Shown piece by piece: positions 254 to 20,000 of a stretch of DNA of 20,000 bases. The notes under the pieces were generated by a model that had not been told where the DNA came from, searched no databases, and saw nothing but the letters and a program-made list of their open reading frames with translations. The stretch is taken from the IMG/VR virus record IMGVR_UViG_3300043117_000361; one strand, given 5' to 3'. The position numbers and the translations under genes were made by a program. The DNA is from an uncultured virus (IMG/VR IMGVR_UViG_3300043117_000361) (Duplodnaviria; Heunggongvirae; Uroviricota; Caudoviricetes). Position 1 is the first letter of the stretch; every line of letters begins with the position of its first letter.

Positions 254-264
254 CAGGAGATAAT

Positions 265-495: not shown

Positions 496-603
496 CGAGC
501 GAAATGGAAGTAAATAATGGATAAGAAACATACACAAACTAACACACAGCAAACATCGACAAACCCGCGCGTCCGTCCGGTCAGGTGCAGCCGGTGGTGT
601 GTT
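473..603 (-). repeat. Degenerate attC site
   Basis: Inner arms TTCACCTGAC / GTCAGGTGCA retained; both cores mutated (TAC, GTG). Confidence 0.5.
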
Positions 604-666
604 CGCGGTGTATGGTTGTATGCGGCGACATGGGATGGTGCAGAGGTAAGGGAGGTTTTAGCATGA
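517..666 (+). CDS. 49-aa hypothetical protein starting inside the degenerate attC
   Basis: ATG at 517; ATGA overlap with the next gene at 663-666. Confidence 0.4.
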   Translation: MDKKHTQTNTQQTSTNPRVRPVRCSRWCVRGVWLYAATWDGAEVREVLA

Positions 667-977
667 ATGAACAAAGCGATCGAATGGATACGGCCTCTAC
701 TGATTTGTTGGTATTTCCGGTTCGGCATCACTTTGACTGTTGGATTGACAGGTGCCGAACATGCCTTGATGACCACCTTGCGCTTGCCGAGTATATCCAT
801 GCGGTAACACAGGCCCCGCGTCAGTACCACGATTTTTTGAGAGAGTACCGGACGTGGCTCGACAGCCACGGAATCCCTGCTGAATCAGAGGACGGATGGG
901 CGACGCGGCAGGCTTGGGACAAAGAGAACGTCCATGCGTTCATTTGGGACGTGTGGGGGGTAGATGCCAACGCCTAA
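663..977 (+). CDS. Hypothetical protein
   Basis: GGAGGT RBS before ATG 663; stop lies inside the next attC. Confidence 0.7.
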   Translation: MNEQSDRMDTASTDLLVFPVRHHFDCWIDRCRTCLDDHLALAEYIHAVTQAPRQYHDFLREYRTWLDSHGIPAESEDGWATRQAWDKENVHAFIWDVWGVDANA

Positions 978-1036
978 ATTGAGTTTTCTGAAAGGAGCGA
1001 AGCGAGTGAAAGATAAATTTAAACGTCTTGTTCGGC
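965..1036 (-). repeat. attC site containing stop, RBS and GTG start
   Basis: + strand TGCCAAC-GCCTAA-ATTGAGT...ATTTAAAC-GTCTT-GTTCGGC; AAAGGAG 991-997, GTG 1006. Confidence 0.75.
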
Positions 1037-1485
1037 ATCTGTCTGCGTGGGCGTGGGCGGATGAGATTGAGACAACGAAACAGGCTGGCGGCGTTCTGCG
1101 CTGGAAGTCGGAATACGATTGGTGGCACTGGTACGTCGTTGAGGTCGGGACGAAAGGTGGACATTGGATTGGAAGTCACGCCGATCCGATGGTCCGAAAG
1201 GCGTGGGATGCCGCAAGGGAACGTATGCCGAACGCACACTTTAGCGGCGCGGTTTCCGCGTCTGTTCCAAGCGATCATTGGGTTTCTTTTAATGTCTGGC
1301 ACGCTGATAGTCACCCACCATTCAGCGCACCTTTGATTTGCAAGGTTCTGCATTATCGCACAGATCGAATAACCGAGGATAAGATGACACTAGAGGAACC
1401 GACCGATCCTCGGTTTTGCTTCTCCAATAACAGCGAACTTGACGAAAGCAAAACTCGTGTTATTGCGTGGAAACTCAATAACTAG
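1006..1485 (+). CDS. Hypothetical protein, apparent fusion of two cassettes through an internal attC
   Basis: RBS and GTG start lie in the attC loop; reads through 1227-1283 as PNAHFSGAVSASVPSDHW. Confidence 0.65.
   Translation: MKDKFKRLVRHLSAWAWADEIETTKQAGGVLRWKSEYDWWHWYVVEVGTKGGHWIGSHADPMVRKAWDAARERMPNAHFSGAVSASVPSDHWVSFNVWHADSHPPFSAPLICKVLHYRTDRITEDKMTLEEPTDPRFCFSNNSELDESKTRVIAWKLNN
1227..1283 (-). repeat. Degenerate attC site inside a CDS
   Basis: GCCGAAC...ATTGGGT; left core ATGCCGAAC is the exact complement of GTTCGGCAT at 1030. Confidence 0.55.
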
Positions 1486-1531
1486 CTCAACTTCGGAGCG
1501 AAGCGGAGTAAGCTGGAGCGCCTTGTTGGGC
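1473..1531 (-). repeat. attC site (family A)
   Basis: Minus strand GCCCAAC-AAGGC-GCTCCAGC...GTTGAGC-TAGTT-ATTGAGT; near-identical to 5088-5147. Confidence 0.85.
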
Positions 1532-1557
1532 GTTCCGTAACATAAAGGAGAAAAGCG

Positions 1558-1776
1558 ATGAACGAAAAAAAGTACATGATTGATGACGAACCGGCCAGCG
1601 CGAATGACATCATTCGCAAGGCGAAGGAACTGGACACGGATTACGGGTCGGACGGCTTCTGTCAGACCAGCGTGGCCGCAGATGTTTTGCAGCGGAACGG
1701 GTTTTCGGTCTGGCACAACCCTGATTATACGCCCAACGCCGGAAGTGACGATCAGAATGAAGGGAGCGAAGAATGA
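1558..1776 (+). CDS. Hypothetical protein (cassette)
   Basis: AAGGAG RBS; C-terminus PNAGSDD... is translated attC. Confidence 0.8.
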   Translation: MNEKKYMIDDEPASANDIIRKAKELDTDYGSDGFCQTSVAADVLQRNGFSVWHNPDYTPNAGSDDQNEGSEE

Positions 1777-1814
1777 GCGAGCGAAATGAGGTAGCGTCCA
1801 CTTCTTTGTTGGAC
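1731..1814 (-). repeat. attC site with ATGA stop/start overlap in its loop
   Basis: + strand GCCCAAC-GCCGGA-AGTGACG...CGTCCACT-TCTTT-GTTGGAC. Confidence 0.85.
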
Positions 1815-1970
1815 GATTTGCGCGACTTGAAGCGCGAACTTGAGGTTGCGAAAAACAGTCAACTGGCTGGTCCGGATGGACGCGCCGCGTTCACATCCTG
1901 CCTTGGGTCTGTGAACATGATTCTCGATAAACACGATACGTCCAACGCAGCAATGACGGGCGGCGAATAG
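1773..1970 (+). CDS. Hypothetical protein (cassette)
   Basis: Starts inside one attC and ends inside the next. Confidence 0.7.
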   Translation: MSERNEVASTSLLDDLRDLKRELEVAKNSQLAGPDGRAAFTSCLGSVNMILDKHDTSNAAMTGGE

Positions 1971-1997
1971 CCGTACCGTCGATTGGCCTTGTTGGGC
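1940..1997 (-). repeat. attC site
   Basis: GTCCAAC..AATGACGG...CCGTCGATT..GTTGGGC. Confidence 0.8.
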
Positions 1998-2024
1998 ACG
2001 TACCGCAAGGCCGGAAAGGACAAC

Positions 2025-2267
2025 ATGAGATCAATTCAGGAAGGCGACATTGTATGTGTTAACTTCAACAATGCACAGTACACGCTTTGCAGTCGGGCCA
2101 AGGTACTACACACGCCCTCGGCAACGGGCGACTCGTGGTACTTTCAGGACATGGAGACAAAAAAAGAATGGGCGGTCAGCGAGGGATGCACGATTACGCT
2201 GATAGAGCCTCATATGCCCAACGCAGAGTTGACCGGATCGAAACAGCCAGAGAAAGGCACAGCATGA
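2025..2267 (+). CDS. Small SH3-like hypothetical protein, TPxATGDSW family
   Basis: AAGGA RBS; similar to the N-half of 3283..3690. Confidence 0.8.
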   Translation: MRSIQEGDIVCVNFNNAQYTLCSRAKVLHTPSATGDSWYFQDMETKKEWAVSEGCTITLIEPHMPNAELTGSKQPEKGTA

Positions 2268-2318
2268 ACCAAACACCGCAAGCGGCTGTTTCGGGTACGG
2301 TCGGACGCCTTGTTCGCC
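2216..2318 (-). repeat. attC site with ATGA overlap in its loop
   Basis: GCCCAAC..GTTGACCG..CGAAACAGCC...GGCTGTTTCG..CGGTCGGAC-GCCTT-GTTCGCC. Confidence 0.85.
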
Positions 2319-2500
2319 CTTCCGGGGTGAGCATTGAGATGATGGAGTTTGCCCGTCCGCAAGACGATGATCTGTGGCACTGGGCAAACAACCTGAACGC
2401 CATGCTGCACTCGGGCTACTGCAAGAAGTGCGGCCTCACGCCGAACGGATGCCGCAACGAAGGCTGTAGGGCTAACGGAAAGGATGACACTCCGAAATGA
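2264..2500 (+). CDS. Hypothetical protein with CxxC...CxxxxC motif (cassette)
   Basis: ATGA-coupled at both ends. Confidence 0.7.
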   Translation: MNQTPQAAVSGTVGRLVRPSGVSIEMMEFARPQDDDLWHWANNLNAMLHSGYCKKCGLTPNGCRNEGCRANGKDDTPK

Positions 2501-2549
2501 GTAAGCGAAGCGCGACGAATGAAGGTAGTTGTCCATCCGCTTGTTCGAC
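2470..2549 (-). repeat. attC site (family D) with ATGA overlap
   Basis: GGCTAAC..GGATGACA...TGTCCATCC..GTTCGAC. Confidence 0.85.
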
Positions 2550-2709
2550 ATGCCCCGCGCTGGAGCTGGTGCGGGCAATCGTCGAGATGACCGAGGGACA
2601 AGCAGACATCGACAAGCGCAGCATTGTGCGCCCCGGCGTTACGCTGGGAAGGGAATCACGCCGCATACTCGCTCGTCTGTCGAACGCCGAGCATGACACT
2701 CGGCATTGA
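2497..2709 (+). CDS. Hypothetical protein (cassette)
   Basis: ATGA overlap; both termini are attC-derived. Confidence 0.6.
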   Translation: MSKRSATNEGSCPSACSTCPALELVRAIVEMTEGQADIDKRSIVRPGVTLGRESRRILARLSNAEHDTRH

Positions 2710-2751
2710 AGCGAAGCGAAAATGACGCAGTTGTCCATGCTTTTGTTGGGC
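2679..2751 (-). repeat. attC site (family D)
   Basis: GTCGAAC..GCATGACA...TGTCCATGC..GTTGGGC. Confidence 0.85.
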
Positions 2752-2770
2752 ATGGACGGGAAGGAAAACG

Positions 2771-2923
2771 ATGAAATTGAACCACTTGATTCTGATAGGT
2801 GACGCGGTGGAGAAAATCCACGAACTGACAAACACAGACATTCCTGACATCGTAGACGCCCTTACTGGTGTTGCTTGGGACGAAGAGGACGCGGGGCAAA
2901 TCAAAGCGTATCACGCTGGCTAA
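2771..2923 (+). CDS. 50-aa hypothetical protein (MKLNHLILIGDAVEKIHEL...)
   Basis: AAGGA RBS; fills the cassette; below the ORF-track length cutoff. Confidence 0.65.
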   Translation: MKLNHLILIGDAVEKIHELTNTDIPDIVDALTGVAWDEEDAGQIKAYHAG

Positions 2924-2931
2924 GATTATAT

Positions 2932-3003
2932 GCCCAATGCAGCGCTCACCGTCGGGGCTCAAGCTCCGAGCGAAGCGAGGTAGATTGAAGCCCTTTGTTG
3001 GGG
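2932..3003 (-). repeat. attC site (family B), apparently chimeric at its left end
   Basis: Body near-identical to 5653-5712; preceded by a GCCCAAT-GCAGC-GCTCACC remnant. Confidence 0.8.
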
Positions 3004-3020
3004 CTGGATTGGAGGACAAG

Positions 3021-3194
3021 ATGACATACGTGAGTGTTGACTACAAGGGCAGAGCGCACATTGCCGACGCGGAATTGCTGGACGACTACAAGGCTGGCGT
3101 GCTGGAGGATGGCGGCGTGCTGCTGCGGATCGACGGCGAGACGGTGAGCCAGTACACGGGCAATGGCGACAATGAATGGGAAGAACTTTACTAG
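3021..3194 (+). CDS. 57-aa hypothetical protein (cassette)
   Basis: GGAGG RBS before ATG 3021. Confidence 0.75.
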   Translation: MTYVSVDYKGRAHIADAELLDDYKAGVLEDGGVLLRIDGETVSQYTGNGDNEWEELY

Positions 3195-3195
3195 C

Positions 3196-3256
3196 CCCAA
3201 ACGCTGCAAAGCAGTCTCGCAGCGGTAGCAAGTAGGCTCGATTTGTCTTGTTGGGT
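3196..3256 (-). repeat. attC site
   Basis: CCCAAAC..AAAGCAGTCT...AGGCTCGATTT-GTCTT-GTTGGGT. Confidence 0.7.
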
Positions 3257-3282
3257 TTCCCAGCAAGGCGGGAAGGAACAAG

Positions 3283-3690
3283 ATGAAAAACAGGATTGAG
3301 AAGGACGACAGGGTGCTGGTGGTTTTCGCCAGCGACGGATCGAGTTTGCGCGGAGTGGTGGACTACACGCCGCAAGCGACAGGTGACTCGTGGGTGATTG
3401 TGCAAGACGATGGCACCGTCAACTATGTTCAGATGTTTGAGACGATGCAACTCGTTGGTAAACCCAACGCTGGCGGTGACGCTTCGGCGTACTCGCCGAT
3501 AGCATCCACTGCTTTGTTGTCTGTCCCGTCCAACACCATTGTGACGTGTGCCAACTGCGGCAACGAGTACGAGGTTCATTACACTGAGCCGTTCGACAAG
3601 GCTGGGGAAGGTAGACGCATCTGCGTGGATTGTTGCGAGGGACTTGGGCCAGAAGACCTGCCATGCGGCATCAGTACAGACAACAACTAG
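3283..3690 (+). CDS. Two-cassette fusion protein: SH3-like ATGDSW domain plus CxxC...CxxC zinc-binding domain
   Basis: AAGGA RBS; internal attC 3462-3522 is translated as the linker PNAGGDASAYSPIASTALLS. Confidence 0.75.
   Translation: MKNRIEKDDRVLVVFASDGSSLRGVVDYTPQATGDSWVIVQDDGTVNYVQMFETMQLVGKPNAGGDASAYSPIASTALLSVPSNTIVTCANCGNEYEVHYTEPFDKAGEGRRICVDCCEGLGPEDLPCGISTDNN
3462..3522 (-). repeat. attC site read through in frame
   Basis: ACCCAAC-GCTGGC-GGTGACGCT...AGCATCCACT-GCTTT-GTTGTCT. Confidence 0.85.
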
Positions 3691-3734
3691 CTCAAGCGTA
3701 GCGAAGCGGAGTCGCTTGCTGCATTTTGTTGGCA
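3678..3734 (-). repeat. attC site (family C)
   Basis: Near-identical to 6495-6553. Confidence 0.8.
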
Positions 3735-3754
3735 ATCTGAATAAGGAGAGAAGA

Positions 3755-3997
3755 ATGAGTGAAATGAATTGGAAGCGATTGAATAAGGAACAACTGGCGA
3801 TACTGGATCACACGGCACACCGGGCCGCTGGTGGGCTGTATTGCGGGGACAGCCCCGACATGCAAAAGCTGATCGAGGCTGGGCTGATGGTGTCGGCGGG
3901 CTGCAAGTCGTTCGTGCCGGATGAGTATTTCCGTATGACGGACAAAGGACACGAAGTGCTGCGGGAAGCATGCCGCCCCAGCTATGGAGGTGAGTGA
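3755..3997 (+). CDS. Small winged-helix-like protein
   Basis: AAGGAG RBS; MQKLIEAGLM...YFRMTDKGHEVL resembles a wHTH C-terminal motif. Confidence 0.7.
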   Translation: MSEMNWKRLNKEQLAILDHTAHRAAGGLYCGDSPDMQKLIEAGLMVSAGCKSFVPDEYFRMTDKGHEVLREACRPSYGGE

Positions 3998-4049
3998 ATG
4001 ACAGTGGAGCTAAGCGTAATTGACAGTATGCTCGATCGTCTTGTTGGCA
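3976..4049 (-). repeat. attC site (left core AGC) containing RBS, stop and start
   Basis: CCCCAGC-TATGGA-GGTGAGT...GCTCGATC-GTCTT-GTTGGCA. Confidence 0.7.
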
Positions 4050-4270
4050 TCATTCGGCGCGAGCAGTTTGACCCAGAGAAGGGGCCTCCTTCGATACGTC
4101 GATTAGCCCGCCTCACGCGCAGGCAGCAGAAGGACGTGCTGGAAGAGTGCGTAGACGCGGACTTGTGCGTAAACATCGGCATCCAGTGTGGTGGCGTGAT
4201 TGGGGTGTTTGATCGCATTGGTGACTACACCGTGGAAGACCTGACGGTAGATTACCAACGCCGAGTGTGA
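3998..4270 (+). CDS. Hypothetical protein (cassette)
   Basis: GGAGG RBS, TGAATG junction; ends in an attC half-site at 4253. Confidence 0.7.
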   Translation: MTVELSVIDSMLDRLVGIIRREQFDPEKGPPSIRRLARLTRRQQKDVLEECVDADLCVNIGIQCGGVIGVFDRIGDYTVEDLTVDYQRRV

Positions 4271-4355
4271 GGTTCAGATATGGGCGCAGTTAAGAAGAAG
4301 TAGACATCGTCACGCGGATTATTTTTTAAATGAATAATGAAGTGAAAGGGATAAA

Positions 4356-4499
4356 ATGGTAAATTCCAAACAATTTATAGCCGTGCGTATAATTATGATC
4401 GCGCTCACATTTCTTATTAACGTAGCAGTTATCGCTGGCGCTGTGTGGCTGGTGGTTAATGTGCTTCAATGGCTTTATATTCTTTTAAAAACCGTATAA
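4356..4499 (+). CDS. 47-aa predicted membrane peptide
   Basis: AAAGGG RBS; long hydrophobic stretch IIMIALTFLINVAVIAGAVWLVVNVL; AT-rich. Confidence 0.6.
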   Translation: MVNSKQFIAVRIIMIALTFLINVAVIAGAVWLVVNVLQWLYILLKTV

Positions 4500-4538
4500 A
4501 ATTAAAAGCCATCCCGTGATCGGGCGCATCTTGGATGT

Positions 4539-4641
4539 TGTGAGCGCCACAAATCAAGGGCAGTTGCCCTAAGGAGTAAACCATGAGTGATGTAGAAAAC
4601 GCGAGCGGGGCGCAAGTACCCACTCAATGCGACTGTTCGGT
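4539..4641 (-). repeat. Degenerate attC containing RBS and ATG
   Basis: GGGCAGTTGCCC...GGGCGCAAGTACCC arms, right core GTTCGGT. Confidence 0.45.
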
Positions 4642-4765
4642 ATTGCGAGCGGCGTTACGCGGGCTGCTTGAATGTCGCTGTGAAGCAAACACCGGACAAT
4701 GTTGCGAGCACGTCAAGGCGGCAGAACAAGCGTTAATGAACAATAAAACAGGAGAGCCAAAATGA
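4583..4765 (+). CDS. Hypothetical Cys-rich protein
   Basis: AAGGAG RBS; ATGA overlap with the next gene. Confidence 0.65.
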   Translation: MSDVENASGAQVPTQCDCSVLRAALRGLLECRCEANTGQCCEHVKAAEQALMNNKTGEPK

Positions 4766-5127
4766 CGGCCAGGCTGACGGTCAAGAAATTGATTACTGAG
4801 TTAATGAGCATGGACCCGGATATGGATGCAGAACGTGCCCTTTCGGATATACGCACCGACACCTTGTTGGGTTTTAACGAGGAAAGTAATGAGATGAATA
4901 TACCATGCGACTGCGGAAATGAAAAAGCGTATTGGAAAGGAGATAGGTGCGGATTGCGAATATACGCCTGTGCAGAATGCCATGCGTACAACAGCGGGCT
5001 TGAAACAGCGGCCGGTCTCATTGAAGAAGGATGCAGCAACGAAGATGATAAAGCTGTGCTGCTTTGCGGAGTTTTATCTTCTAAGAAACTCAACGATCAA
5101 GCTCAGCTTCGGAGCGAAGCGGAGTAA
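4762..5127 (+). CDS. Hypothetical protein with CxC...CxxC zinc-ribbon-like motif
   Basis: GGAG RBS; stop lies inside the attC. Confidence 0.7.
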   Translation: MTARLTVKKLITELMSMDPDMDAERALSDIRTDTLLGFNEESNEMNIPCDCGNEKAYWKGDRCGLRIYACAECHAYNSGLETAAGLIEEGCSNEDDKAVLLCGVLSSKKLNDQAQLRSEAE

Positions 5128-5147
5128 GCTGGAGCACCTTGTTGGGC
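5088..5147 (-). repeat. attC site (family A), textbook architecture
   Basis: Minus strand GCCCAAC-AAGGT-GCTCCAGC-TTACTCCGCTTCGCTCCGAA-GCTGAGC-TTGATC-GTTGAGT. Confidence 0.92.
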
Positions 5148-5588
5148 TTTTAGAGCACGTTGCAATTCAGAGAGGAGCGGGCGCCAGTCTGCTGCGGCGT
5201 CGCCAATCGGCATCAATTCGTCCGGTATGTTGTCCAGGCTTACCGGGAGGCCGAGCGCCTCCTGCAGAGCCAAGGCGGATTCCATAGTATCGAATTCGTC
5301 AGTACCGTCGGCGACGTCGACGTTAGTCCAGTTTCCTGGGTTGAAACTTTCGCCCCATTCCTTACGCATGGCGGCTAGAACCTTCTGTTCAAAGTTCGGA
5401 TCCAGGCGAAAATCGGGCATCACCGGCGGCGTGTAAGTAGGCGCTTGGGGACGCTGTTTTGGGCGTCCGAGTCCCAAAAAGGCCCTCTTCTCAAACACCT
5501 CCGCAAGCCCCTGGGCGTACGCCTGCTTCAGGTGTCCGGACACGTTGCGTTGTTGTGCAACTTTAATTCCAAGTTCATATGGTGTCAT
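5103..5588 (-). CDS. K-x-A-leader protein with an acyl carrier protein-like domain (pantetheine Ser replaced by Glu)
   Basis: AGGAG RBS 7 nt before ATG; GTDEFDTMESALALQEALG aligns by eye to ACP GADSLDTVELVMALEEEF. Confidence 0.65.
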   Translation of the reverse strand: MTPYELGIKVAQQRNVSGHLKQAYAQGLAEVFEKRAFLGLGRPKQRPQAPTYTPPVMPDFRLDPNFEQKVLAAMRKEWGESFNPGNWTNVDVADGTDEFDTMESALALQEALGLPVSLDNIPDELMPIGDAAADWRPLLSELQRALKAQQGAPAYSASLRS

Positions 5589-5652
5589 AACGAGACTCCT
5601 ATTAAAGGTCAAACACGAGCGAAGAATACCACAGGAGGCTGGCGGATGTCAA

Positions 5653-5712
5653 GTTCAACGCCGGGGCTCAAGCTCCGAGCGAAGCGAGGTAGATTGCAGC
5701 CCTTTGTTGGGG
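5653..5712 (-). repeat. attC site (family B)
   Basis: GTTCAAC-GCCGGG-GCTCAAG...ATTGCAGC-CCTTT-GTTGGGG. Confidence 0.85.
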
Positions 5713-5729
5713 CAAAAATGGAGGACAGG

Positions 5730-5921
5730 ATGGACAAGACGGCAGAACTGATTGTTGATGCGATAGTGACCGACTTCACCGACAGGCGCGGGTTGCGGCA
5801 AGAGTGGGAACAGATCGACGAGAAGATTCAGAACGAAATCAAGGGCGAGTGGATGCGCCTTGTGCGCGAGATTCTTGGTCGCCCCAACGCCGGAGTTCAC
5901 ACTCCGAGCGAAGCGAGGTAG
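5730..5921 (+). CDS. 63-aa phage hypothetical protein (DRRGLRQEWEQID motif)
   Basis: GGAGG RBS; C-terminus is attC-derived. Confidence 0.8.
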   Translation: MDKTAELIVDAIVTDFTDRRGLRQEWEQIDEKIQNEIKGEWMRLVREILGRPNAGVHTPSEAR

Positions 5922-5943
5922 TTTGTGAAACGATTTGTTCGGA
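5882..5943 (-). repeat. attC site
   Basis: CCCCAAC-GCCGGA-GTTCACA...TGTGAAAC-GATTT-GTTCGGA. Confidence 0.9.
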
Positions 5944-6034
5944 ATCAGGCACGGGTAGGCAAACCTGACGGGCGTATGGCTGGCTGCTTGGGGTTCGATT
6001 CCCCGATGCCCGTTCCCATGCCGGGGTGCCTGAT
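5944..6034 (+). ncRNA. Putative tRNA-like mini RNA (acceptor stem plus T-arm) occupying a whole cassette
   Basis: CGGGCGT/ATGCCCG stem stacked on TGGGG-TTCGATT-CCCCG; closed by ATCAGGCAC/GTGCCTGAT; no credible ORF. Confidence 0.5.
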
Positions 6035-6113
6035 GCCGAACGCACAAGCTGACCATCAAAAAAGGAGCGAAGTATGAGCGGATTTTTTGTAGCGGTCCAG
6101 CGCCTTGTTGGGC
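6035..6113 (-). repeat. attC site containing RBS and ATG
   Basis: GCCGAAC-GCACAA-GCTGACC...GGTCCAGC-GCCTT-GTTGGGC. Confidence 0.9.
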
Positions 6114-6304
6114 GCATGGTTGGACGCTGTAAATGTGGCAAGTTTGTTCCTAATTGGGGCAAACTCCACGCATCATGTAAGCATGCGGCCCTGAATGGCG
6201 TTGCCATCAGTTTGCCAGCAATACGGTATTGCCCGTGGTGTGGCTGTCGTGTGCCGCCCAATGCCGGAAATCAGGGGCATGTGCCCCAGGGAGAACGATC
6301 ATGA
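6074..6304 (+). CDS. Small zinc-ribbon-like protein (CxC...YCPWCG)
   Basis: AAGGAG RBS in the attC loop. Confidence 0.75.
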   Translation: MSGFFVAVQRLVGRMVGRCKCGKFVPNWGKLHASCKHAALNGVAISLPAIRYCPWCGCRVPPNAGNQGHVPQGERS

Positions 6305-6356
6305 GTAACACGAAACGCACAGCGGGGCACATGTCCCCTGAATTGACTTGTTATCC
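6256..6356 (-). repeat. attC site with ATGA overlap in its loop
   Basis: GCCCAAT-GCCGGA-AATCAGGGGCATGTGCCCC...GGGGCACATGTCCCCTGAATT-GACTT-GTTATCC. Confidence 0.8.
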
Positions 6357-6507
6357 AAAATGCGAAGACTGCCTGCACTGGCGGGACGAGCTATGTCATT
6401 TTGCGTCTCCGTTTTTGGCACGTCGTGAAACGCAACGCAAACGCCCGATCAAGCCAAAAAGCCTGAACTGCGGTATTGAAGGAAAGAACTTTATCGCGAA
6501 CAACTAG
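6301..6507 (+). CDS. Small Cys-rich protein (CxDCxHW...C...CGxEGKNF)
   Basis: GGAG RBS; ATGA overlap. Confidence 0.75.
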   Translation: MSNTKRTAGHMSPELTCYPKCEDCLHWRDELCHFASPFLARRETQRKRPIKPKSLNCGIEGKNFIANN

Positions 6508-6553
6508 CTCAAGCGCGTAGCGAAGCGGAGTCGCTTGCTGCGCCTTGTTGGAG
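6495..6553 (-). repeat. attC site (family C)
   Basis: Near-identical to 3678-3734. Confidence 0.8.
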
Positions 6554-6566
6554 GCGTATATTGACA

Positions 6567-6707
6567 ACTTTGAGACAGGGATCGGGTCGCAGGTTCGAGT
6601 CCTGCCGGACAAGGGCAACGGGACGCCGTTCGCAGCTTTGCCACTGCGTGTGCGCACACGATTGACCGATGCCGGGCGGCATGACTCGTCCCTTTGTCTC
6701 TGAAAGT
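6567..6707 (+). ncRNA. Putative structured RNA with a T-loop hairpin
   Basis: Closing stem ACTTTGAGACAGGGATCGGGTC / GACTCGTCCCTTTGTCTCTGAAAGT; GCAGG-TTCGAGT-CCTGC at 6589-6605. Confidence 0.45.
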
Positions 6708-6718
6708 GAGGTTTAGGA

Positions 6719-6991
6719 GTGAGTGAGCAAAGAAAGCGAATAAAGGCAACAGCCCAGCGCTTTGCCCGTCAGTCTCGGGCACTGTCCGCAATGCGGTCAA
6801 CCGGCTCAGACCTGCGGCAGTACCGCAATGAATCAGCGGCCTGGTATGTTTGGCATCCAACCGCATACCGTGTGCGATTGAAATTAACATGTCGAGACGT
6901 GTTGCTCATGGTAACTGATGGCAGGCTATGCGCTCCGCAGCAAGATGAGTGTCGCGGGCATTATCTGCCCAACAGTGCGGTACATGTATAA
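6719..6991 (+). CDS. Hypothetical basic protein
   Basis: ORF track; start codon uncertain; ends in an attC half-site (PNSAVHV). Confidence 0.55.
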   Translation: MSEQRKRIKATAQRFARQSRALSAMRSTGSDLRQYRNESAAWYVWHPTAYRVRLKLTCRDVLLMVTDGRLCAPQQDECRGHYLPNSAVHV

Positions 6992-7031
6992 ACTGCGAAC
7001 GATAAGAAGAAAGAACAAAAGGAGAACAGTA

Positions 7032-7589
7032 ATGCAGAAGATTATCAGCTTGTTTCAGAGAAATTATGAGACGGATAGACTCGTGAGGGATGAAGTCGTA
7101 CCAGGTGCTGAATGGGTACTGAACGGTGAAGGCACCGCAACTCGGAAGTGGGACGGGATGTGCTGCATGGTGCGTAATGGACAACTGTTCAAGCGATATG
7201 AAGTGAAGCGAGGTAAGGCCTTTCCGCCTGACTTTGAGCCTGCTTGCGATATTGACCCGAATACGGGCAAGCAGCAGGGATGGCGTCCGGTTGGAGACGG
7301 GCCGGAAGACCGCTGGTTCCGTGAAGCGTTTACCGGGGAAGAACCGGACGGCACTTATGAACTGATTGGGCCAAAGGTGCAAGGCAACCCAGAAGGATTT
7401 AACTCGCATACGCTCGTTCCGCACGGTCAGCATCCCGTTGCCGCACCACGCACCTTCGACAAACTGCGGGAGTGGTTCAAGGGACCGGGGAGCGATATCG
7501 AGGGCGTGGTATGGTGGCACGACGATGGACGAAAGGTGAAGATCAAGGCCAAGGACTTCGGGATTCGCCGTGTTGCCAACCAGCGATAA
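7032..7589 (+). CDS. RNA ligase-like nucleotidyltransferase (DUF5565/RLIG1-like)
   Basis: Motif I TRKWDG, III TYELIG, IV EGVVW, V KIKAKDF; AAGGAG RBS. Confidence 0.8.
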   Translation: MQKIISLFQRNYETDRLVRDEVVPGAEWVLNGEGTATRKWDGMCCMVRNGQLFKRYEVKRGKAFPPDFEPACDIDPNTGKQQGWRPVGDGPEDRWFREAFTGEEPDGTYELIGPKVQGNPEGFNSHTLVPHGQHPVAAPRTFDKLREWFKGPGSDIEGVVWWHDDGRKVKIKAKDFGIRRVANQR

Positions 7590-10627: not shown

Positions 10628-13069
10628 ATGCCTAGTGCTGATGAAGCTCAATTCGAGACCACTTTCTCTAATCTGGCCTATGTACATTTGCGGGACAGAG
10701 CCCCTAAACTTCTTGATTATCTTATTGGTTTTCAGTTGTTAGATAAAAATGAAGATGACACTAAAGCAGCGGGGGTATTTGGTATAAAGATTGAAAAAAC
10801 CTGGCTGTATGTAGTGTCCTTCTTTATCAGGGGAGAGCTTAAAGGCTGTGACAGTATCTATATTAAAAGCAAGAACACAGTAGTTCCCCTGGAGGAGAAT
10901 TGGGTAAACTATATTTTATCCCGCAAACCTTCGGTCATGGGAGGCCCAGACGAAACCACTATGAGCGACCTAGCCAAATATGAGCCGTCTTTTAATGAGT
11001 ATTTTGACAGTCCGTTCTCAAAAAACTCGTTTTGTGAATATGACGGTACAGATAATGTATACGGGAAATGCCTGATAGGCAGTAAATTTGACATAAGACC
11101 TTGTCTGCCATTATTTTATGCGTCTCCCAATTCTGAAATATATAAAAAATCCGCAGAAAGAACTAAATTGGCCTCTGTTGTCAGGGAATACGGCGAATTT
11201 CCTCTTAAAATAGTCGCAAACACCATACGTGAGAACAAAAAGTTTGCTGATTTGATGAAAGAGCACATACAGGCCGATGATTTGGTTTATGACGATGTAT
11301 CGTCTGAAAATAAGAAAGAACTGCGGCCGCCATCTGATGACGAGCTTAAAGAAAAGGACATAGACAGGGCTTTGTTTAACTATTATGTACGCAATATAGC
11401 TGCCAGGGGGTTCTACAGGGGAGCCCGTCCTGTAGGGGATGTCATAGACTTGCTCAAATCACGTGGAATAAACAATGCCAACGATCTGAGAAACAGATTG
11501 AGCATGATTACTGTGGCTCCTTTGAATCCGGCTTTAAGAAAAGTTTCCTCAAAAGACGACACGAACAGCAGGATAACGGTTGTTACAGACAGTAATGCCG
11601 ATCTGGTAAACAGGGATCTTACCAGAGAGCACAGAGAGGATCTGGTCAGAGAGGGTTTCACTTTTATAGACAAACGGGCATCTTCTAATGTGTCTACAGT
11701 TCTTCCAAGAAACGGATCCTCGGCAGTGGCCACTCCTACAGACACCGGATTTTATTCAGTGTTTGGCGATGATGGGGTTTTTCACGACTGTTTTATTATA
11801 AATGGTGGATTCGATTTTCACAGCGGTGCCACTGAAAATCTTTGTATTATAGATGTTAATACAAAAAAGGATATGATAGTGGATCAGGGTTCAGTTCTTG
11901 CAACACACGATTATCCGGATCTGTCTCTGAGCAAGGTATTTACAAAAGTTAAAAAAGAGAATATGGTTACGGGAAACGTTTATTTTTTTAAGAAAGGAAA
12001 CAAATTCAGTTTACCGTTTAACTATATAGGAAAAAAGAAGGGCAATATTGTAGCTGTTTTAAGATCCGGGTTAAATGTTTCTTATCCTGTAAGCGACAGT
12101 CCTCCCCACGAGCGTCTTCATATTAATACAGAGAAGCTTCCAGAGTCTTTAAAATATCTTAATCAACATGTGTTTATACCGGGAAAGACGGCGTCATTTG
12201 TAGTTAACTCCGCCGGATGTTTTATCCCTGATGATGTAGAAATATACAAAATTGCCAAGCCTTCTAAAGATGAAGTACTAAGCTGTGAAGGTGCCAGAGA
12301 CTGGTATCCGGGCGATATAGACTGTTTCGAGGCTCATCTGATAAAATCAGCAGGTCTGGTTCCTGTTACTGTCATGGCCGACTACAGGCAGTACAGGTTT
12401 CCCGACAGTCCTGACATATACGGTCGTAAAAGTATGGTCTCAGAGCTTATGACATCTTACGGACTCAGTAAAAATGCGGCTCTAAGTATACTTAATGAGG
12501 CCGATTCCAATAAATTTCATTCCGTGTTTGTTAAAACTGCTGTCCCATACGCTGATGCAGGTATTCCTATAGCACCTTCCACGAATATTCCTGTGTCGGC
12601 AGCTGATTCCATGGTAGGGGTCCCTCCCGGGGTTATGGGCGTGGGTCCATCCAGTAAGACTATGATGGTTCCAGGCCAGATGAAGGCTACCCCAAGCGAC
12701 TATAACGTGTTGGACGATAAGGACGTACAGACTATATTCCAGCTGGCTCAGACCGGTGAAAAAGAAGTTATGGATACCGGAATCATGGCCAGTCTTATTA
12801 AGACCATGGATATATCAAGCGCCATAAACAAATATATATCGGATCTCATGGTAGGCCTGGACAGGCTGGGCCGTATACTGATTATGTTTTATTGGCATAT
12901 AGATAAATTTGCGGAAACGTATGGTGAAGAGGAACTTACAGAGCTTGAAACCTCTATTAAAGACGGTTTTTCAAATCTTGGAAATCTTGTACTGTTTCTT
13001 AAAAAGAAGGAAATAGACAATGATTTTGACATTCTTGGAGGTTCATCAGGGCTGGAGGCAGATCTTTAA
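10628..13069 (+). CDS. Large phage protein, putative virion/head-associated
   Basis: 813-aa ORF, first gene of the protease operon, several K-x-A motifs; function inferred from context. Confidence 0.75.
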   Translation: MPSADEAQFETTFSNLAYVHLRDRAPKLLDYLIGFQLLDKNEDDTKAAGVFGIKIEKTWLYVVSFFIRGELKGCDSIYIKSKNTVVPLEENWVNYILSRKPSVMGGPDETTMSDLAKYEPSFNEYFDSPFSKNSFCEYDGTDNVYGKCLIGSKFDIRPCLPLFYASPNSEIYKKSAERTKLASVVREYGEFPLKIVANTIRENKKFADLMKEHIQADDLVYDDVSSENKKELRPPSDDELKEKDIDRALFNYYVRNIAARGFYRGARPVGDVIDLLKSRGINNANDLRNRLSMITVAPLNPALRKVSSKDDTNSRITVVTDSNADLVNRDLTREHREDLVREGFTFIDKRASSNVSTVLPRNGSSAVATPTDTGFYSVFGDDGVFHDCFIINGGFDFHSGATENLCIIDVNTKKDMIVDQGSVLATHDYPDLSLSKVFTKVKKENMVTGNVYFFKKGNKFSLPFNYIGKKKGNIVAVLRSGLNVSYPVSDSPPHERLHINTEKLPESLKYLNQHVFIPGKTASFVVNSAGCFIPDDVEIYKIAKPSKDEVLSCEGARDWYPGDIDCFEAHLIKSAGLVPVTVMADYRQYRFPDSPDIYGRKSMVSELMTSYGLSKNAALSILNEADSNKFHSVFVKTAVPYADAGIPIAPSTNIPVSAADSMVGVPPGVMGVGPSSKTMMVPGQMKATPSDYNVLDDKDVQTIFQLAQTGEKEVMDTGIMASLIKTMDISSAINKYISDLMVGLDRLGRILIMFYWHIDKFAETYGEEELTELETSIKDGFSNLGNLVLFLKKKEIDNDFDILGGSSGLEADL

Positions 13070-13893
13070 TGGCAAGAGAAAGAATACGCAGACGAGATAA
13101 AAATCCTTTAAGAGCTCCTGACTGGAGATGGGTTCTTGCTAAAAATGCCGCTAACGGCTATGTTAATTCCAGAGGTCTCGACCGGAGTACAGGAATGGCT
13201 TTTAAGTTTATACGCTTTTTAAAAGAGTATAAGGCCAAGGTGGAACAAGGGAACTACAAGCATATGGACAGTTCCTTTATTTTTACCAAATATCCGAGCA
13301 TGCACCAGGCATACACTCTGTTTACTGCGGATAACTATATGAAATGGGCCGTTGAAGCCTATATAATAGCCGGGGCTCCAAAAAAGACAATAGCGGAAAA
13401 GACCGGATGCGATGTTGCCGGTGTGTCTCTCTATGAGGATGTGTTCTATGATATACGTGACAGGCTTAAACACCCTCTCTATGTTATTCAGGAGGTTCTA
13501 ATGCCTGTTGCCGGTGATGATACCAGCAGAGGTGACTATAATTTCCTGTGGAAAACTGTAGCGTACTATTGTGATACAGCGGTTTTAGAGGAGTTTATAA
13601 GTAATGCACCTCTGTCTACAAAGGTTAAAGAGACAATATATGAGCTGTTTGAAGGTCAAATTACCCGTCAGGCTCTTCTTTCTGCCTTTACCCGGTTGCC
13701 GTCTAAGTATACGCATCATGATATAGTGGAAGAGTACGCTGTATTTACGGATAAAATGCGTAATAAAGAGGGTGCAGCTTCCGGAAGTGTGGATGAACAG
13801 GTTAAGAGTCTGGTGGATGGTATATCTTTGGGATTGGCACAGTTAGATAAAACTGGTAAACTAGGTAAAGTTGAGAAACAGGTTTCTTTATAA
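13069..13893 (+). CDS. Phage hypothetical protein
   Basis: 274 aa; TAATG overlap. Confidence 0.8.
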   Translation: MARERIRRRDKNPLRAPDWRWVLAKNAANGYVNSRGLDRSTGMAFKFIRFLKEYKAKVEQGNYKHMDSSFIFTKYPSMHQAYTLFTADNYMKWAVEAYIIAGAPKKTIAEKTGCDVAGVSLYEDVFYDIRDRLKHPLYVIQEVLMPVAGDDTSRGDYNFLWKTVAYYCDTAVLEEFISNAPLSTKVKETIYELFEGQITRQALLSAFTRLPSKYTHHDIVEEYAVFTDKMRNKEGAASGSVDEQVKSLVDGISLGLAQLDKTGKLGKVEKQVSL

Positions 13894-13906
13894 AAACAGG
13901 TTGATT

Positions 13907-16387
13907 ATGGATTTATTAAGCTATTCTGACGAGACTCGTATATTCAAGGCAGCGCAGGCCGCTTTGAGGGAAGCAGGCAGTGGTACTGATCCTTCGGAGG
14001 CGGTTGCTAAATACGCTACAGTCTATAAACTGGTTCCTGAAATGACTAAACGGGCTGTAGAGGCCTTTAACGTTTCCAGGACTGCTAATCATCTTAAAAC
14101 GGCTCCCGCCATAAAGAAAGCTGAATCAGTGGATTTAGCGGATACTGAGTCTGTTTTTTCTATTATGTATCCTTCTACCGTCAAGACTCCTTCTGTTGAG
14201 ACGCATAAGTCTGCTCTGTTTTCAGACACTCATGATACAATATATTATGACGAACCGGCTCCTGAGACTATTAAAGGGGATCTATCTGCTAAGTCATTTA
14301 CAGACACTCCCGATGCCGACTGGTTCCAGGCTCTCAGAGAGACTGAGCATATCAAGGCTGCGGCCGGCATAATAAAGGATAAAAAGGCTGAAATACACTA
14401 TAAGCTTGTTAACGCGATACAGGACGCTGTAGACTATTTTCGTCCTGTTGATGCTGAGAGCTTTTCAAAGTGCGCAGATTACGTCATGCGTAAAACAGCT
14501 AATAATGCTTTTCCTCTGCTTAATGAGGTGTATGAAGAGTCTAAACTCGGCGAAGTGGGCCGGGCATGGGAAGCAGCGGATAAGTTCAAATCTGTTGGTA
14601 TAGAGAAACTTGCAGAAGCCTTTGAATACGAGATAGATACTCCGACTGAGGGTATTAAGAAGCTGGCAGGTATTGTTGAGCTTGCACGTCAATACTGTAA
14701 AATATCGTCTGTAGACACGGTAGCCTCTAATGATGCTGGTAATTTTGAGGAAGTTTTTGATATGAAAAGCAAAAAACTTCTTAAAAAAAAAGCTTTTATT
14801 CCTTCCAGTATAGTAGGAGGGGTGTATAAAAACCTTCCAATTTTGAATGCGGTAAGCAGTATCGGCCAGGGTTTGACAGATAAATATAGTCTATCTGGTG
14901 AGGACATAGAGGATGTATTCGCCTCATCTGTTACTTCGGGGGTACGGGATACTGAAAACAACATTAGAGCAACTATGCTTTTAAATGATTTCCTGCGTAA
15001 CGATGAGGTTCTGTCTGCTGCTCCTCCTGAAGAAGTTGTCCGTTATTTTAATAAGCTGATGGAATCGTATCCTGATCTTTTAAAGGCTCCTATGGTTGTT
15101 AAATCTGTTATCAGGAAAGCAGTGGAATCCGGTGGTCTGGATATGTATGATCTTTCCAGCGTAGGCAGTATGGCTTCCGATGTAGCCAAGACCGAACGCG
15201 ACAAGGAAAGGAATATTATTGAGAAGGCTAAAGTTCGTAAAGAGGTATACGACAAAAAAGAGCCTATGAAGATAGACGTCAATAATTATATTCCTAAAAA
15301 AGAGCCTATGAAGATAGACGTCAATAATTATATTCCTAAATCAGAAAAACCACCAAAGGATAAACCAGAAGATGAATCAGGTGGCAAATCAGACGACAAG
15401 ACAAAAGAAGGACCTTTTGGGCCTGTGTCGACTATATTCGTAAGGCCTGATCTCAATACAAAAAGTCTTCCTGTTTATGGTACTTATGGTGAGCCTTTAG
15501 GTCTCCCCGCTCCAGATACTGATGTTCCGTTAAGCGGCAACACAGGTACATGGCATCGTGGCAGCAGTACTGCTTCTTCATCTGATAGAGCGCCTACTGA
15601 CAGGGACATACTGGATTTCATGGAATGGACCGGTCTGGGCAAAGAAGGGTCTGCCAATGAACATCTCGGCATAAGTAAAGATGCCTCTAATCTGGCTGAA
15701 AGTTTTATTAAATCCTCTAACAAAGTAACAGAAAAACTGGAAGAACTGGCCGAAGATCTGAAGGGTCGGGCAGTTACATTTAAGGATCTGCTCATGTCTG
15801 AACAGGTTCTTCCTTATCTTACAGGAGCGTCTATAGGCAGCTTAGGGGCTGGAACCTATGGGTATATGTCTTCAGATAAGATAGGGAAGGACAGACTCAT
15901 GGAGGCGGTTAGAAAAGCTCTAATGGGTTCCGCAGCCGGTGCTGCCGGCGGCCATTTGTATAAGCATCTGGCTGTTCAGGACAAAAACCACGACATTGAA
16001 GAGTCGCCGTCAGTGAGTGTACATACCGATGTCGACGAGGTTACACAGCCGCGCAAAACAGTAAATCCAAGAAATATTAAAATGGTTCCTAAAAGATTGG
16101 ATCTAGATCAGCGCAGTGAGGGGAGTAGTGCCACTATATGGGATATGATCAGACGGATGACTGGTTTTGGTCCTGAGCCTATAATGGAGTACGAACCAGC
16201 TCCATATACTCCTGGTTTCTTTGAGTCTATTGGAAATTTAATTAAGGTTGATGATCCGTCCAGTGTCAATATCAATGATCCAGCTGACCCACCTGTAGAG
16301 CTGCTTTGGCCGAAATATACCGATACATATAAAGAATTTGCTAGAGACCTTGCTATCAAAGCCCGGGAACAGGAAGAGTGGTTATGA
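13907..16387 (+). CDS. Large K-x-A-rich putative virion (internal head) protein
   Basis: ATG 13907; many K-x-A motifs; Gly/Ala-rich helices GASIGSLGAG, GSAAGAAGG. Confidence 0.75.
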   Translation: MDLLSYSDETRIFKAAQAALREAGSGTDPSEAVAKYATVYKLVPEMTKRAVEAFNVSRTANHLKTAPAIKKAESVDLADTESVFSIMYPSTVKTPSVETHKSALFSDTHDTIYYDEPAPETIKGDLSAKSFTDTPDADWFQALRETEHIKAAAGIIKDKKAEIHYKLVNAIQDAVDYFRPVDAESFSKCADYVMRKTANNAFPLLNEVYEESKLGEVGRAWEAADKFKSVGIEKLAEAFEYEIDTPTEGIKKLAGIVELARQYCKISSVDTVASNDAGNFEEVFDMKSKKLLKKKAFIPSSIVGGVYKNLPILNAVSSIGQGLTDKYSLSGEDIEDVFASSVTSGVRDTENNIRATMLLNDFLRNDEVLSAAPPEEVVRYFNKLMESYPDLLKAPMVVKSVIRKAVESGGLDMYDLSSVGSMASDVAKTERDKERNIIEKAKVRKEVYDKKEPMKIDVNNYIPKKEPMKIDVNNYIPKSEKPPKDKPEDESGGKSDDKTKEGPFGPVSTIFVRPDLNTKSLPVYGTYGEPLGLPAPDTDVPLSGNTGTWHRGSSTASSSDRAPTDRDILDFMEWTGLGKEGSANEHLGISKDASNLAESFIKSSNKVTEKLEELAEDLKGRAVTFKDLLMSEQVLPYLTGASIGSLGAGTYGYMSSDKIGKDRLMEAVRKALMGSAAGAAGGHLYKHLAVQDKNHDIEESPSVSVHTDVDEVTQPRKTVNPRNIKMVPKRLDLDQRSEGSSATIWDMIRRMTGFGPEPIMEYEPAPYTPGFFESIGNLIKVDDPSSVNINDPADPPVELLWPKYTDTYKEFARDLAIKAREQEEWL
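15254..15340 (+). repeat. Perfect 42-bp in-frame tandem duplication (KKEPMKIDVNNYIP x2)
   Basis: Directly visible in the sequence. Confidence 0.95.
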
Positions 16388-17826: not shown

Positions 17827-17847
17827 GTTAAGATAGGTGGTTTAGCT

Positions 17848-18519
17848 GTGTCCGATCCTAACTTACCAGACAGATATGCTGATTTATATCGTACGTTTGA
17901 TAAAGGGCATGATCTAAACCACATAAAATCAGTTAGAGATCGCGCTTCAGTACTCTCGTCCAAATATGCTCCCGATAAATCTGATCTTATTGATCTTGCA
18001 GCCGCTCTTCACGATGTAGGAATATCCAGAGGACGCGATAATCACCCTGAACACGGCTATAGTATGCTGAAAGAGGACAAGGATATAAGAAACAGGATTT
18101 CTAATAGAGATTTCAATCTTCTTTTAGAGGCAGTAAGAGAGCATGGAGCTTCATCGGGGCGCCCTGAATCTACAGTTGCCAGAATAGTGAGCGACGCCGA
18201 TAAAACAGCTGAAAAAGACCCTTATGATTCTATTTTACGTGCTTACAATTATGGTAAATCTCACTTTCCCTCCATGACCGATGATCAACAGGTTCGGCGG
18301 GCTGTTGATCACATAGTGGACAAGTACAGCCAAGGAGGCTACGGCTCTAATGTGTTCTTTCCTGAATCAAGAGATATTCTTGAGAAAAGGACGGAGGCTG
18401 CCAGAGCTCTTCAGAAAATGCAGGACATACGTGAGATAAAAAGTAAACTAGGTATCAACAGTAAGTCCGCTCATTTTCTTGGACATGCGCTTGGAACTCT
18501 TTCTTTTTTAGGTTTGTGA
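17848..18519 (+). CDS. HD-domain phosphohydrolase
   Basis: GH...H, AAALHDVG, NH..HG, VREH, VSDADK. Confidence 0.85.
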   Translation: MSDPNLPDRYADLYRTFDKGHDLNHIKSVRDRASVLSSKYAPDKSDLIDLAAALHDVGISRGRDNHPEHGYSMLKEDKDIRNRISNRDFNLLLEAVREHGASSGRPESTVARIVSDADKTAEKDPYDSILRAYNYGKSHFPSMTDDQQVRRAVDHIVDKYSQGGYGSNVFFPESRDILEKRTEAARALQKMQDIREIKSKLGINSKSAHFLGHALGTLSFLGL

Positions 18520-18589
18520 CTGGTTAATTCTTCCTGATTTATGGGAATAATATAAAGTAAACGTTTACGAACCAAAAAAGGAGGTTGAC

Positions 18590-18934
18590 ATGCGTGCAGC
18601 ACATTTTTCTAGGCTCAATTCGAGCCGCACAGATAGGGAACTCACAGAGGCGAAAAAAATGGGACTTTCTGATGTTGTCCCATGCACCCTGTGTCCCCGA
18701 GACCCCGACGGGTACGTGGCCGTGATACTGGACACGTGCTCCAGAGGGTTTAAAGGTGTCTTTGATGCAATTCTGCTCAAAGACTGCAGCCCGGCGGAGC
18801 TCAGCAAACTGATCCGGGCCAGCAAACAGGAACGGGAAGGGAAAACCATTCCCGTATTCTTATGGGACCCACACGAGAAGCAGTGGTGTTCCATCTGTGA
18901 ATTAAAAAATAGGAGGTACCATGAAGACCTATGA
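18590..18934 (+). CDS. Hypothetical protein
   Basis: GGAGGT RBS. Confidence 0.7.
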   Translation: MRAAHFSRLNSSRTDRELTEAKKMGLSDVVPCTLCPRDPDGYVAVILDTCSRGFKGVFDAILLKDCSPAELSKLIRASKQEREGKTIPVFLWDPHEKQWCSICELKNRRYHEDL

Positions 18935-19286
18935 GGTCAAAATATCCACCAGACACCAGGGGTTGGTGGATTGGCTTGCCCGCCGTGGGATAAGGGGGCA
19001 AGGACTGGCATATCCCACAAGAGAAGATGTGCTAGGGCATGTAATTGTAGGAACATTGCCCTACCATTTGGCGGAGGCGGCTGCTGCCGTCGTGTCGGTA
19101 GAGTTGACTCTTTCTACGGAAATGCTGGATAGAGAGTTAACATGTACCGATGTTGCTGCTGCAAACCCTAAGGCCACTGCATACGTAGTAACCAAAATAA
19201 GGAGCAGAATCCGTCCTACGTGTAAAACCGGATCCTGGGGTTTGTGGACCGCCAGAGAACTGGTGGCAAAGATAAACAGTAAGTAA
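18921..19286 (+). CDS. csx16: Csx16-like (VVA1548 family) protein, putative cOA ring nuclease
   Basis: TRHxGLVDWLxxxGI...VIVGTLPYHLA...RELTxxD motifs; AGGAGG RBS. Confidence 0.75.
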   Translation: MKTYEVKISTRHQGLVDWLARRGIRGQGLAYPTREDVLGHVIVGTLPYHLAEAAAAVVSVELTLSTEMLDRELTCTDVAAANPKATAYVVTKIRSRIRPTCKTGSWGLWTARELVAKINSK

Positions 19287-19318
19287 CGATTTCAAATCGT
19301 TGTAAGGAGGTGATATCC

Positions 19319-19723
19319 ATGTTAGAAGGGGAAATAAGGACATTCTCCAGTGAGCCTGTTAGTTTCCTGGTGCTGAAACACTGGGACGAAGGCGTCTGGA
19401 TGATGGTCCCATTCAGCTCTCGTGACCTTCCTTACGAGGAGGGAGAGCTTCTTGCTGACACCGGGTTGCCGGGTTGCTCGGTGTTGAGCGTATGGAATAC
19501 CCATACGTTTCCAGAAGATATTCTGGAAAATTCAAGGCTTATAGGCAGTATGCAGAGAGAGAGGCTGGAGGACGTGTGGAATTTGTTCCGCTACCTGCTC
19601 ACCGGTGAAGGATCAGTGAGCCGCAGTCCTGACTCTATCTTTCTGGTTCCTGACTCTTTTGAATCGGATCCCTCCTATAAGAGGAAAGAGCTGATGAAGA
19701 TAAGGAAAATCCTGTTTGCTTAA
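19319..19723 (+). CDS. Hypothetical protein
   Basis: AAGGAGGTGA RBS before ATG 19319. Confidence 0.75.
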   Translation: MLEGEIRTFSSEPVSFLVLKHWDEGVWMMVPFSSRDLPYEEGELLADTGLPGCSVLSVWNTHTFPEDILENSRLIGSMQRERLEDVWNLFRYLLTGEGSVSRSPDSIFLVPDSFESDPSYKRKELMKIRKILFA

Positions 19724-19833
19724 ATAGCGCAAAAAAACAGGCATACTTACTTGTAAGACATTTAATCAATCCTTACCGCAGAGCCGACCTGCGTTAACAC
19801 GGCGACCGTCAGAGGTGATCTGATTTAATTAAC

Positions 19834-19868
19834 TACAGCCGGCAGGGTGCAACTCCCTGTCGGCTGTA
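19834..19868 (+). other. Long hairpin with T-loop-like apex (terminator or RNA element)
   Basis: TACAGCCGGCAGGG-TGCAACT-CCCTGTCGGCTGTA. Confidence 0.55.
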
Positions 19869-19892
19869 TTTCAAACAATTAAGGAGGAATAA

Positions 19893-20000
19893 ATGTGCGA
19901 TTTCATAAGTTGGATTGAAAAAGATAACAAACTTTTTTACTTAACAGATAAAGAGGTCTTCTCTGCCCAGGGCAGAGAAAAATTCTCAGGGTGTCGTGAC
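19893..20000 (+). CDS. Phage hypothetical protein, 3'-truncated (MCDFISWIE...)
   Basis: AAGGAGG RBS; open to the window end. Confidence 0.7.
   Translation, partial: MCDFISWIEKDNKLFYLTDKEVFSAQGREKFSGCRD

Follow-up and report, generated by a model that had tools for sequence, protein, structure and literature searches.

A stand-alone Csx16-family protein in the head-gene region of a large phage: a worn copy and candidate anti-type III ring nuclease

Viral ring nucleases (AcrIII-1, AcrIII-2 and phage homologues of Crn4) are an established means of counter-defence. The AcrIII-1 fold has a histidine that acts as general acid and a lid loop. Csx16 is the cA4-specific ring nuclease of type III CRISPR loci: in vitro it cuts cyclic tetra-adenylate (cA4) and not cyclic hexa-adenylate (cA6) (Hoikkala et al. 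2025, PMC12409355). Cellular Csx16 has been modelled as a dimer in the literature; the canonical form is characterised by a homodimer that has a single cA4 site, a small derived Rossmann (CARF-like) fold like that of viral Crn2, and cA4 cleavage in EDTA. Here we analyse a csx16 gene in a stretch of 20,000 nucleotides (hereafter the window) that forms the end of the 72.5-kb record IMGVR_UViG_3300043117_000361 of an uncultured virus. The gene product is a real member of PF09652 on a phage; it is neither a canonical Csx16 nor AcrIII-1. A Csx16 on a phage, read as viral counter-defence in an earlier note on this DNA, is not new, since two phage genomes with Csx16 are already in print (PMC12409355). 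We read the protein as an anti-type III ring nuclease, probably slowed, and give this reading a probability of about 45%. The features on which the argument rests are the following:

18921..19286, plus strand: csx16 gene (PF09652), 121 aa, with a core domain at residues 6-92 and a C-terminal tail
18911..18916, plus strand: Shine-Dalgarno sequence AGGAGG, four bases before the csx16 ATG and within the 3' end of the upstream open reading frame (ORF)
18948..18962, plus strand: T10-R11-H12-Q13-G14 motif, intact; His12 is the predicted general acid
19011..19013, plus strand: Tyr31 (His or Gln in the family), predicted at the position of AcrIII-1 R66 and Crn2 R514, in a deduced register
19050..19073, plus strand: G44-T-L-P-Y-H-L-A51 motif, intact
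19125..19130, plus strand: Leu69-Asp70 (Arg-Gly in the family), in a predicted mobile lid loop; placed at AcrIII-1 E88-G89 by a weak hhalign match
17827..20000, no strand: left part of the accessory island, 5.5 kb long, that separates the head protease gene from the next head gene and continues past the window end

The frame of csx16 opens with an ATG and has no internal stop. The earlier note had assigned the protein to the Csx16/VVA1548 family, and the profile searches agree. Pfam PF09652 (Cas_VVA1548) matches with E = 4.3e-13 and 49.7 bits against a cut-off of 25, aligning residues 10-90 with profile positions 4-90/91, and is the sole Pfam family at E ≤ 0.1; the DUF1874 profile gives no match. 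Three PADLOC Csx16 models also match (E = 3.6e-11 to 6.4e-5). A phmmer search against 1.84 billion representatives returned 311 proteins at E ≤ 0.001, the best non-self match being P0003, which is 44% identical over its full length. Membership of the Csx16 family is thus far beyond chance. The NCBIfam model TIGR02620 (Csx16) scores 17.6 bits, below its cut-off of 46.35. We do not call the protein a canonical Csx16 because of this score, because two family motifs are missing and because no type III locus was found around the gene in 111.7 kb. A PHROG profile search gave no match, and a word-index search with the protein returned only its own fragment. In the PDB, a single-protein sequence search yielded three weak chance matches, and a profile search yielded ankyrin/DARPin repeats, which were ruled out as matches to a short PLHLAA stretch. 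A promoter consensus search found none, and two terminator-like sites were seen against 1.7 expected by chance.

The phage origin proposed in the earlier note is borne out by the capsid, terminase, and DNA and RNA polymerase genes of the virus record. The same csx16 protein occurs in two further viral records, one of which (111.7 kb, CheckV completeness about 57%) is >99.7% identical in the overlap and extends 15 kb past csx16. This sister record encodes a terminase, a DNA polymerase A, a multi-subunit RNA polymerase, a ribonucleotide reductase and RNA-repair enzymes. The identity of the capsid protein is 28-31% with its counterparts in Salmonella phage Arash and three Vibrio phages, and 58% with that of a complete 208-kb virus. 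All 23 sequencing runs listed as containing the DNA carry an oil-field metagenome label (13 are flagged as possible sources); no RNA run is among them, and they have no bearing on expression. Within this large phage, csx16 is an accessory insertion in the head module, because homologues of both head genes flanking the island lie 43 bases apart in the complete 208-kb relative, because this relative has no Csx16, and because G+C content at third codon positions (GC3) differs (0.50-0.57 for csx16 and two neighbours against 0.34-0.41 for an HD-domain gene and three genes of the structural region).

The earlier note reported no cas genes or CRISPR array in the window, and this extends to the whole 111.7 kb. 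A Pfam scan of 24 of the 119 window ORFs detected no type III cas family, nor did a scan of 100 out of 104 chosen non-overlapping ORFs of the sister record outside the window (the four left out are short and on the opposite strand). A search for repeat-associated mysterious proteins (RAMPs) was negative in all three records carrying csx16 and positive in 5 of 14 control genomes. Neither the window record nor the sister record shows a CRISPR-like repeat run. The phage cas operon that the earlier note had considered just outside the window was not found: over 96 kb upstream and 15 kb downstream of csx16 there is no RAMP, Cas10, Cas6, Cas1 or array. Cas-named matches are limited to two TnpB-type transposon proteins and to the 223-aa HD-domain protein, which weakly matches the PADLOC Cas10 model over the first 75 of 577 positions (E = 7e-4), the polymerase part not being included. 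The TnpB-type genes lie at L008:4083-5438 and L008:17729-19337, one of them beside a resolvase. A more distant type III locus could still exist because the sister record is only 57% complete. In the part of the genome covered, csx16 lies on a mobile element and apart from cas genes.

We then compared the protein with 197 other full domains, eight rows having been dropped (seven fragments and one duplicate); the [ST]-R-H-x-G and G-x-L-P motifs were defined from our own alignment and not from a paper. The earlier statement that the motifs match the family stands for the N-terminal TRHxG and the central GxLP.HLA motifs, and fails for the C-terminal RG motif and for His31, which are absent. The view that the enzyme is intact is therefore not supported. 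Among the homologues, position 11 is Arg or Lys in 190/197, position 12 is His in 185/197, position 31 is His or Gln in 174/197, and Arg-Gly is found near residue 69 in 183/197. Cellular copies have all four features (Arg/Lys11, His12, His31 and Arg-Gly) in 28 cases out of 28. The phage protein retains R11, H12, G44, L46, P47, L50, A51 and Y88, and is changed at five well-conserved sites (28, 31, 32, 69 and 70). Both the position-31 and the Arg-Gly features are absent in nine of 198 domains, the phage protein included, while P0003 retains His/Gln31 and Arg-Gly. These changes are not an assembly slip, because the protein is identical in the three records and four sequencing runs show no other letters (two of these runs are possibly the source of this DNA, and two span csx16 only partly). 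Seventeen differences separate the window from the sister records; they fall at 19916-19993, outside csx16, where two paralogous genes meet the contig end. As judged from the alignment, the phage Csx16 is a worn copy that has lost three residues kept by nearly all relatives, and it ranks among the more worn examples of the family. Tyr31 and Asp70 also occur together in one separate homologue, P0011, which hints weakly that the pair is tolerated.

The structure model of the phage protein is confident, with a predicted local distance difference test (pLDDT) score of 92.7. When it is aligned to AFV3-109 and Crn2, their catalytic His falls on His12 if the first ten residues are left ungapped, a register read from the ends of the structural alignments. 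His12 is thus the predicted equivalent of AcrIII-1 H47 and Crn2 H495. Since the fold and the position of the catalytic His appear to be shared, Csx16 is probably a distant relative of AcrIII-1 and not an unrelated analogue, whereas the earlier note had placed the two in different families; likely homology was noted before (PMC8284326). At E ≤ 0.001, Foldseek searches of the PDB and of BFVD returned no match. The phage protein differs from AcrIII-1 and Crn2 (DUF1874; SIRV1 gp29, AFV3-109 and Marinitoga Csx1-Crn2) in lacking a DUF1874 match. Residues N8, G46-H47, T50, N65-R66, R85 and E88-G89 of AcrIII-1 are invariant in 10/10 aligned members, whereas the phage protein lacks the first ~33 residues, including N8, has Tyr at the R66 position and Leu at the E88 position, and has only the predicted H47 equivalent among these invariant residues. 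The correspondence of the changed sites to AcrIII-1/Crn2 positions required for activity is weak. Anti-CRISPR action is proven for AcrIII-1; the phage Csx16 is a candidate. A dimer prediction with two adenosine monophosphates scored 0.68, with one control at 0.57, and carries no weight either way.

A tight alignment of 18 matches retrieved 27 viral loci. None of these records has a RAMP (0/27, with only four of the 27 at least 90% complete), and no cas1, cas2, csm6 or cmr6 homologue is near csx16 in any of the 27 loci. Repeat-run signals in two of them (L016 and L017) were rejected as a 15-base-period coding repeat and no array, L016 being the one examined. By the same test, 23 of the 30 cellular loci fetched with Allochromatium Csx16 adjoin cas genes or arrays. 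Cultured viral carriers are Methanobacterium virus Drs3 (ORF3) and Bacillus phage Shbh1 (gp42), which may be the two phages of PMC12409355, and stand-alone Csx16 is also encoded by plasmids of Deinococcus proteolyticus, Allomeiothermus silvanus and an uncultured archaeon. In these five, as in the phage, Csx16 stands alone among small accessory genes away from cas; unlike the phage copy, they have His12 and His/Gln31 in 5/5 cases and RG in 4/5. The phage protein resembles cellular Csx16 in its Pfam match above the cut-off, its R-H and GxLP motifs and the size of its core domain. It differs in its ~28-residue C-terminal tail, the lack of His31 and Arg69-Gly70, the TIGR02620 score below the cut-off and the absence of type III genes in 111.7 kb. 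The tail, with a predicted helix at residues 105-119, is common to the phage protein and P0003. A quick tree of 109 of the 199 domains places the phage Csx16 apart from the sampled cellular group and joins it with P0003 in a group of nine (support 94). We draw no direction of transfer, because the columns are few and a single query supplied the cellular set, which makes the clusters partly a matter of construction. A viral scan with P0003 gave no new relatives. In cellular genomes, a first scan with the mobile-type alignment, a weak test because it used one narrow pattern, yielded none out of 15 candidates.

Two observations concern the organisation of these relatives. On the D. proteolyticus plasmid pDEIPR02 (L040:7992-8276), Csx16 is in a long same-strand run of small genes near two ssb genes, a region that seems to resemble a plasmid leading region. 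P0004, P0034 and the Allomeiothermus plasmid protein (L041:7998-10013) each show two Csx16-like stretches, and, by eye, the N-terminal half of Shbh1 gp42 (L001:2734-3276) resembles a second, worn copy. Such two-domain forms are possible single-chain pseudo-dimers.

Counter-defence is the likeliest purpose of the phage Csx16, as the earlier note had proposed; this is consistent with the cleavage of cA4 by Csx16 in vitro (PMC12409355) and with the 27 viral loci devoid of RAMP or cas genes. The phage likely acquired the gene for this purpose, and the protein, as a predicted dimer, would bind cA4, the type III alarm molecule. Cleavage of cA4 would proceed through the retained His12; with changes at two predicted active-site positions, it would probably be slower than in ordinary Csx16. 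The loss of cA4 would then lower the activation of cA4-dependent effectors. Cleavage of cA6 is not expected, because the Csx16 tested is cA4-specific. In this scheme we infer the residue correspondence, the expression, the dimer formation, the activity and a host with a cA4-signalling type III system. The wear of the protein weighs against it: the lost residues may have left it slow or inactive.

Taken further, this wear could mean that the gene is a decaying remnant, i.e. a former anti-type III ring nuclease that evolves under relaxed selection and no longer functions. We regard this as doubtful, though as the most credible of the alternatives. At each of the five changed well-conserved sites, a single base separates the codon from one for the usual residue, in a comparison made without ancestral codons, and the protein has polar residues (K7 and S9) at two core positions that are almost all hydrophobic among 150 homologues. 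Its end branch in the tree is long (1.8 against a median of 0.77), and the complete relative manages without csx16. Decay is however harder to reconcile with a frame free of stops and frameshifts, an intact ribosome-binding site, the retention of the RH and GxLP motifs and of the P0003-type tail, and the uniformity of the protein across three records and four runs. No csx16 homologue is close enough for a test based on the ratio of non-synonymous to synonymous substitution rates (dN/dS).

Less likely still, the protein could serve counter-defence as a non-cutting binder (a sponge) or as an enzyme for another cyclic nucleotide. The changed residues are predicted to form the lid and to position the phosphate, and Csx15 provides a precedent, being described as a good cA4 sponge and a slow nuclease (PMC13148439). 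A virus-only branch of the family (L019-L037, 11 distinct sequences) points the same way. Its Asn replaces His12 in 11/11 sequences, Tyr31 is found in 8/11, RG is kept in 10/11, and a 4-5 residue insertion precedes the RG motif; examples are:

L022:3331-3624, virus-only branch csx16
L025:5986-6279, virus-only branch csx16
L036:5983-6279, virus-only branch csx16

In the 18 closest of 55 pairs (those with <20% amino-acid-changing differences) dN/dS is 0.09-0.39, therefore non-canonical forms of Csx16 are maintained. From its residues, this branch is a candidate non-catalytic binder of cyclic nucleotides. However, the phage Csx16 retains His12 and does not group with this branch, the loss of the conserved Arg is expected to weaken binding as well as cutting, and it has been argued that a sponge may achieve little against cyclic oligoadenylate (cOA), which type III systems make in large amounts (PMC13148439). 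A broader version, in which the Csx16 fold has radiated on mobile elements into forms without the usual cA4 cleavage, as sponges or enzymes for other cyclic nucleotides, with the phage copy and the His-to-Asn branch as two such forms, strikes us as improbable too. Finally, that the protein is no anti-CRISPR and acts in trans as the off-switch of a type III locus borne by the phage or its host is very improbable: about 43% of the genome is unseen, and ring nucleases occur in 31 effector-less loci for which action in trans was considered (PMC12409355), but the 111.7 kb hold no type III component or array and the phage Csx16 is outside the sampled CRISPR-linked group (a group from one query).

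Other genes of the island in the window are:

17848..18519, plus strand: stand-alone HD-domain protein of 223 aa, the first island gene (PF01966, E = 1.7e-9)
18590..18934, plus strand: upstream ORF of 114 aa with its own AGGAGG at 18579-18584; it overlaps csx16 by 14 bases and has no family
19319..19723, plus strand: downstream ORF of 134 aa, with a likely ATG start at 19319

The upstream ORF has no homologue, and a viral scan with it gave no new relatives. Its Atlas model has weak Rossmann-like look-alikes with template-modelling (TM) scores of about 0.56-0.59; one row (TM 0.56), among malic-enzyme rows, is a cluster labelled DUF1887/Card1. We rejected the idea of a second CARF-like or Csx16-like protein as unsupported (hhalign 0.1%, single-sequence model pLDDT 40.5, no homologue). 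In the broader version above, this orphan, with its predicted Rossmann-like fold, could be a partner of the phage Csx16. The predicted fold of the downstream ORF resembles uncharacterised bacterial proteins of 330-340 aa (TM 0.83-0.85), in clusters labelled Verrucomicrobiota, Thermodesulfobacteriota and Lentisphaerota, with a weaker likeness to PemK/MazF; a search for longer homologues found none. These fold matches give a faint hint as to the origin of the island. Three paralogous genes share an N-terminus and an internal repeated unit (window 19893-20000, L005:12757-14373 and G000 48382-49266), and two of them sit in the csx16 island just after the csx16 block.

Other parts of the phage genome are of separate interest. 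Upstream of the window, the gene run at L009:2491-7967 (G000 about 10760-16240) includes genes for one JAB-like (PADLOC E = 9e-5) and one ThiF/E1-like (E = 3e-14) protein, along with an ORF of 143 aa and a pair of about 570-590 aa; from these matches, it is possibly a phage ubiquitin-like conjugation operon. An RNA ligase (PF17720, phrog_14301) lies at 6918-7589 (plus strand) in the window, and L010:12115-14283 and L007:13139-14497 encode a fused kinase-phosphatase-ligase and a ligase with a LigD phosphoesterase domain. RNA cleavage by defence nucleases of the host could be mended by their products. From about 200 to 6600, small genes are numerous in the window, and a repeated element, seen as recurring opposite-strand peptide ends, lies between them.

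The idea of counter-defence by the phage Csx16 is thus sound and already known. Because viral ring nucleases are established and phage Csx16 is in print, one more phage copy adds little. In the literature searched, no phage Csx16 has been shown to act as an anti-CRISPR, and there is no Csx16 structure or mutant series, so any tested phage Csx16 would fill a small gap. The copy studied here is a poor first choice for this because it is worn; it is instead a natural variant with which to test the need for His31 and Arg69 in Csx16. The His-to-Asn branch of viral proteins is a more interesting lead than the phage copy itself.
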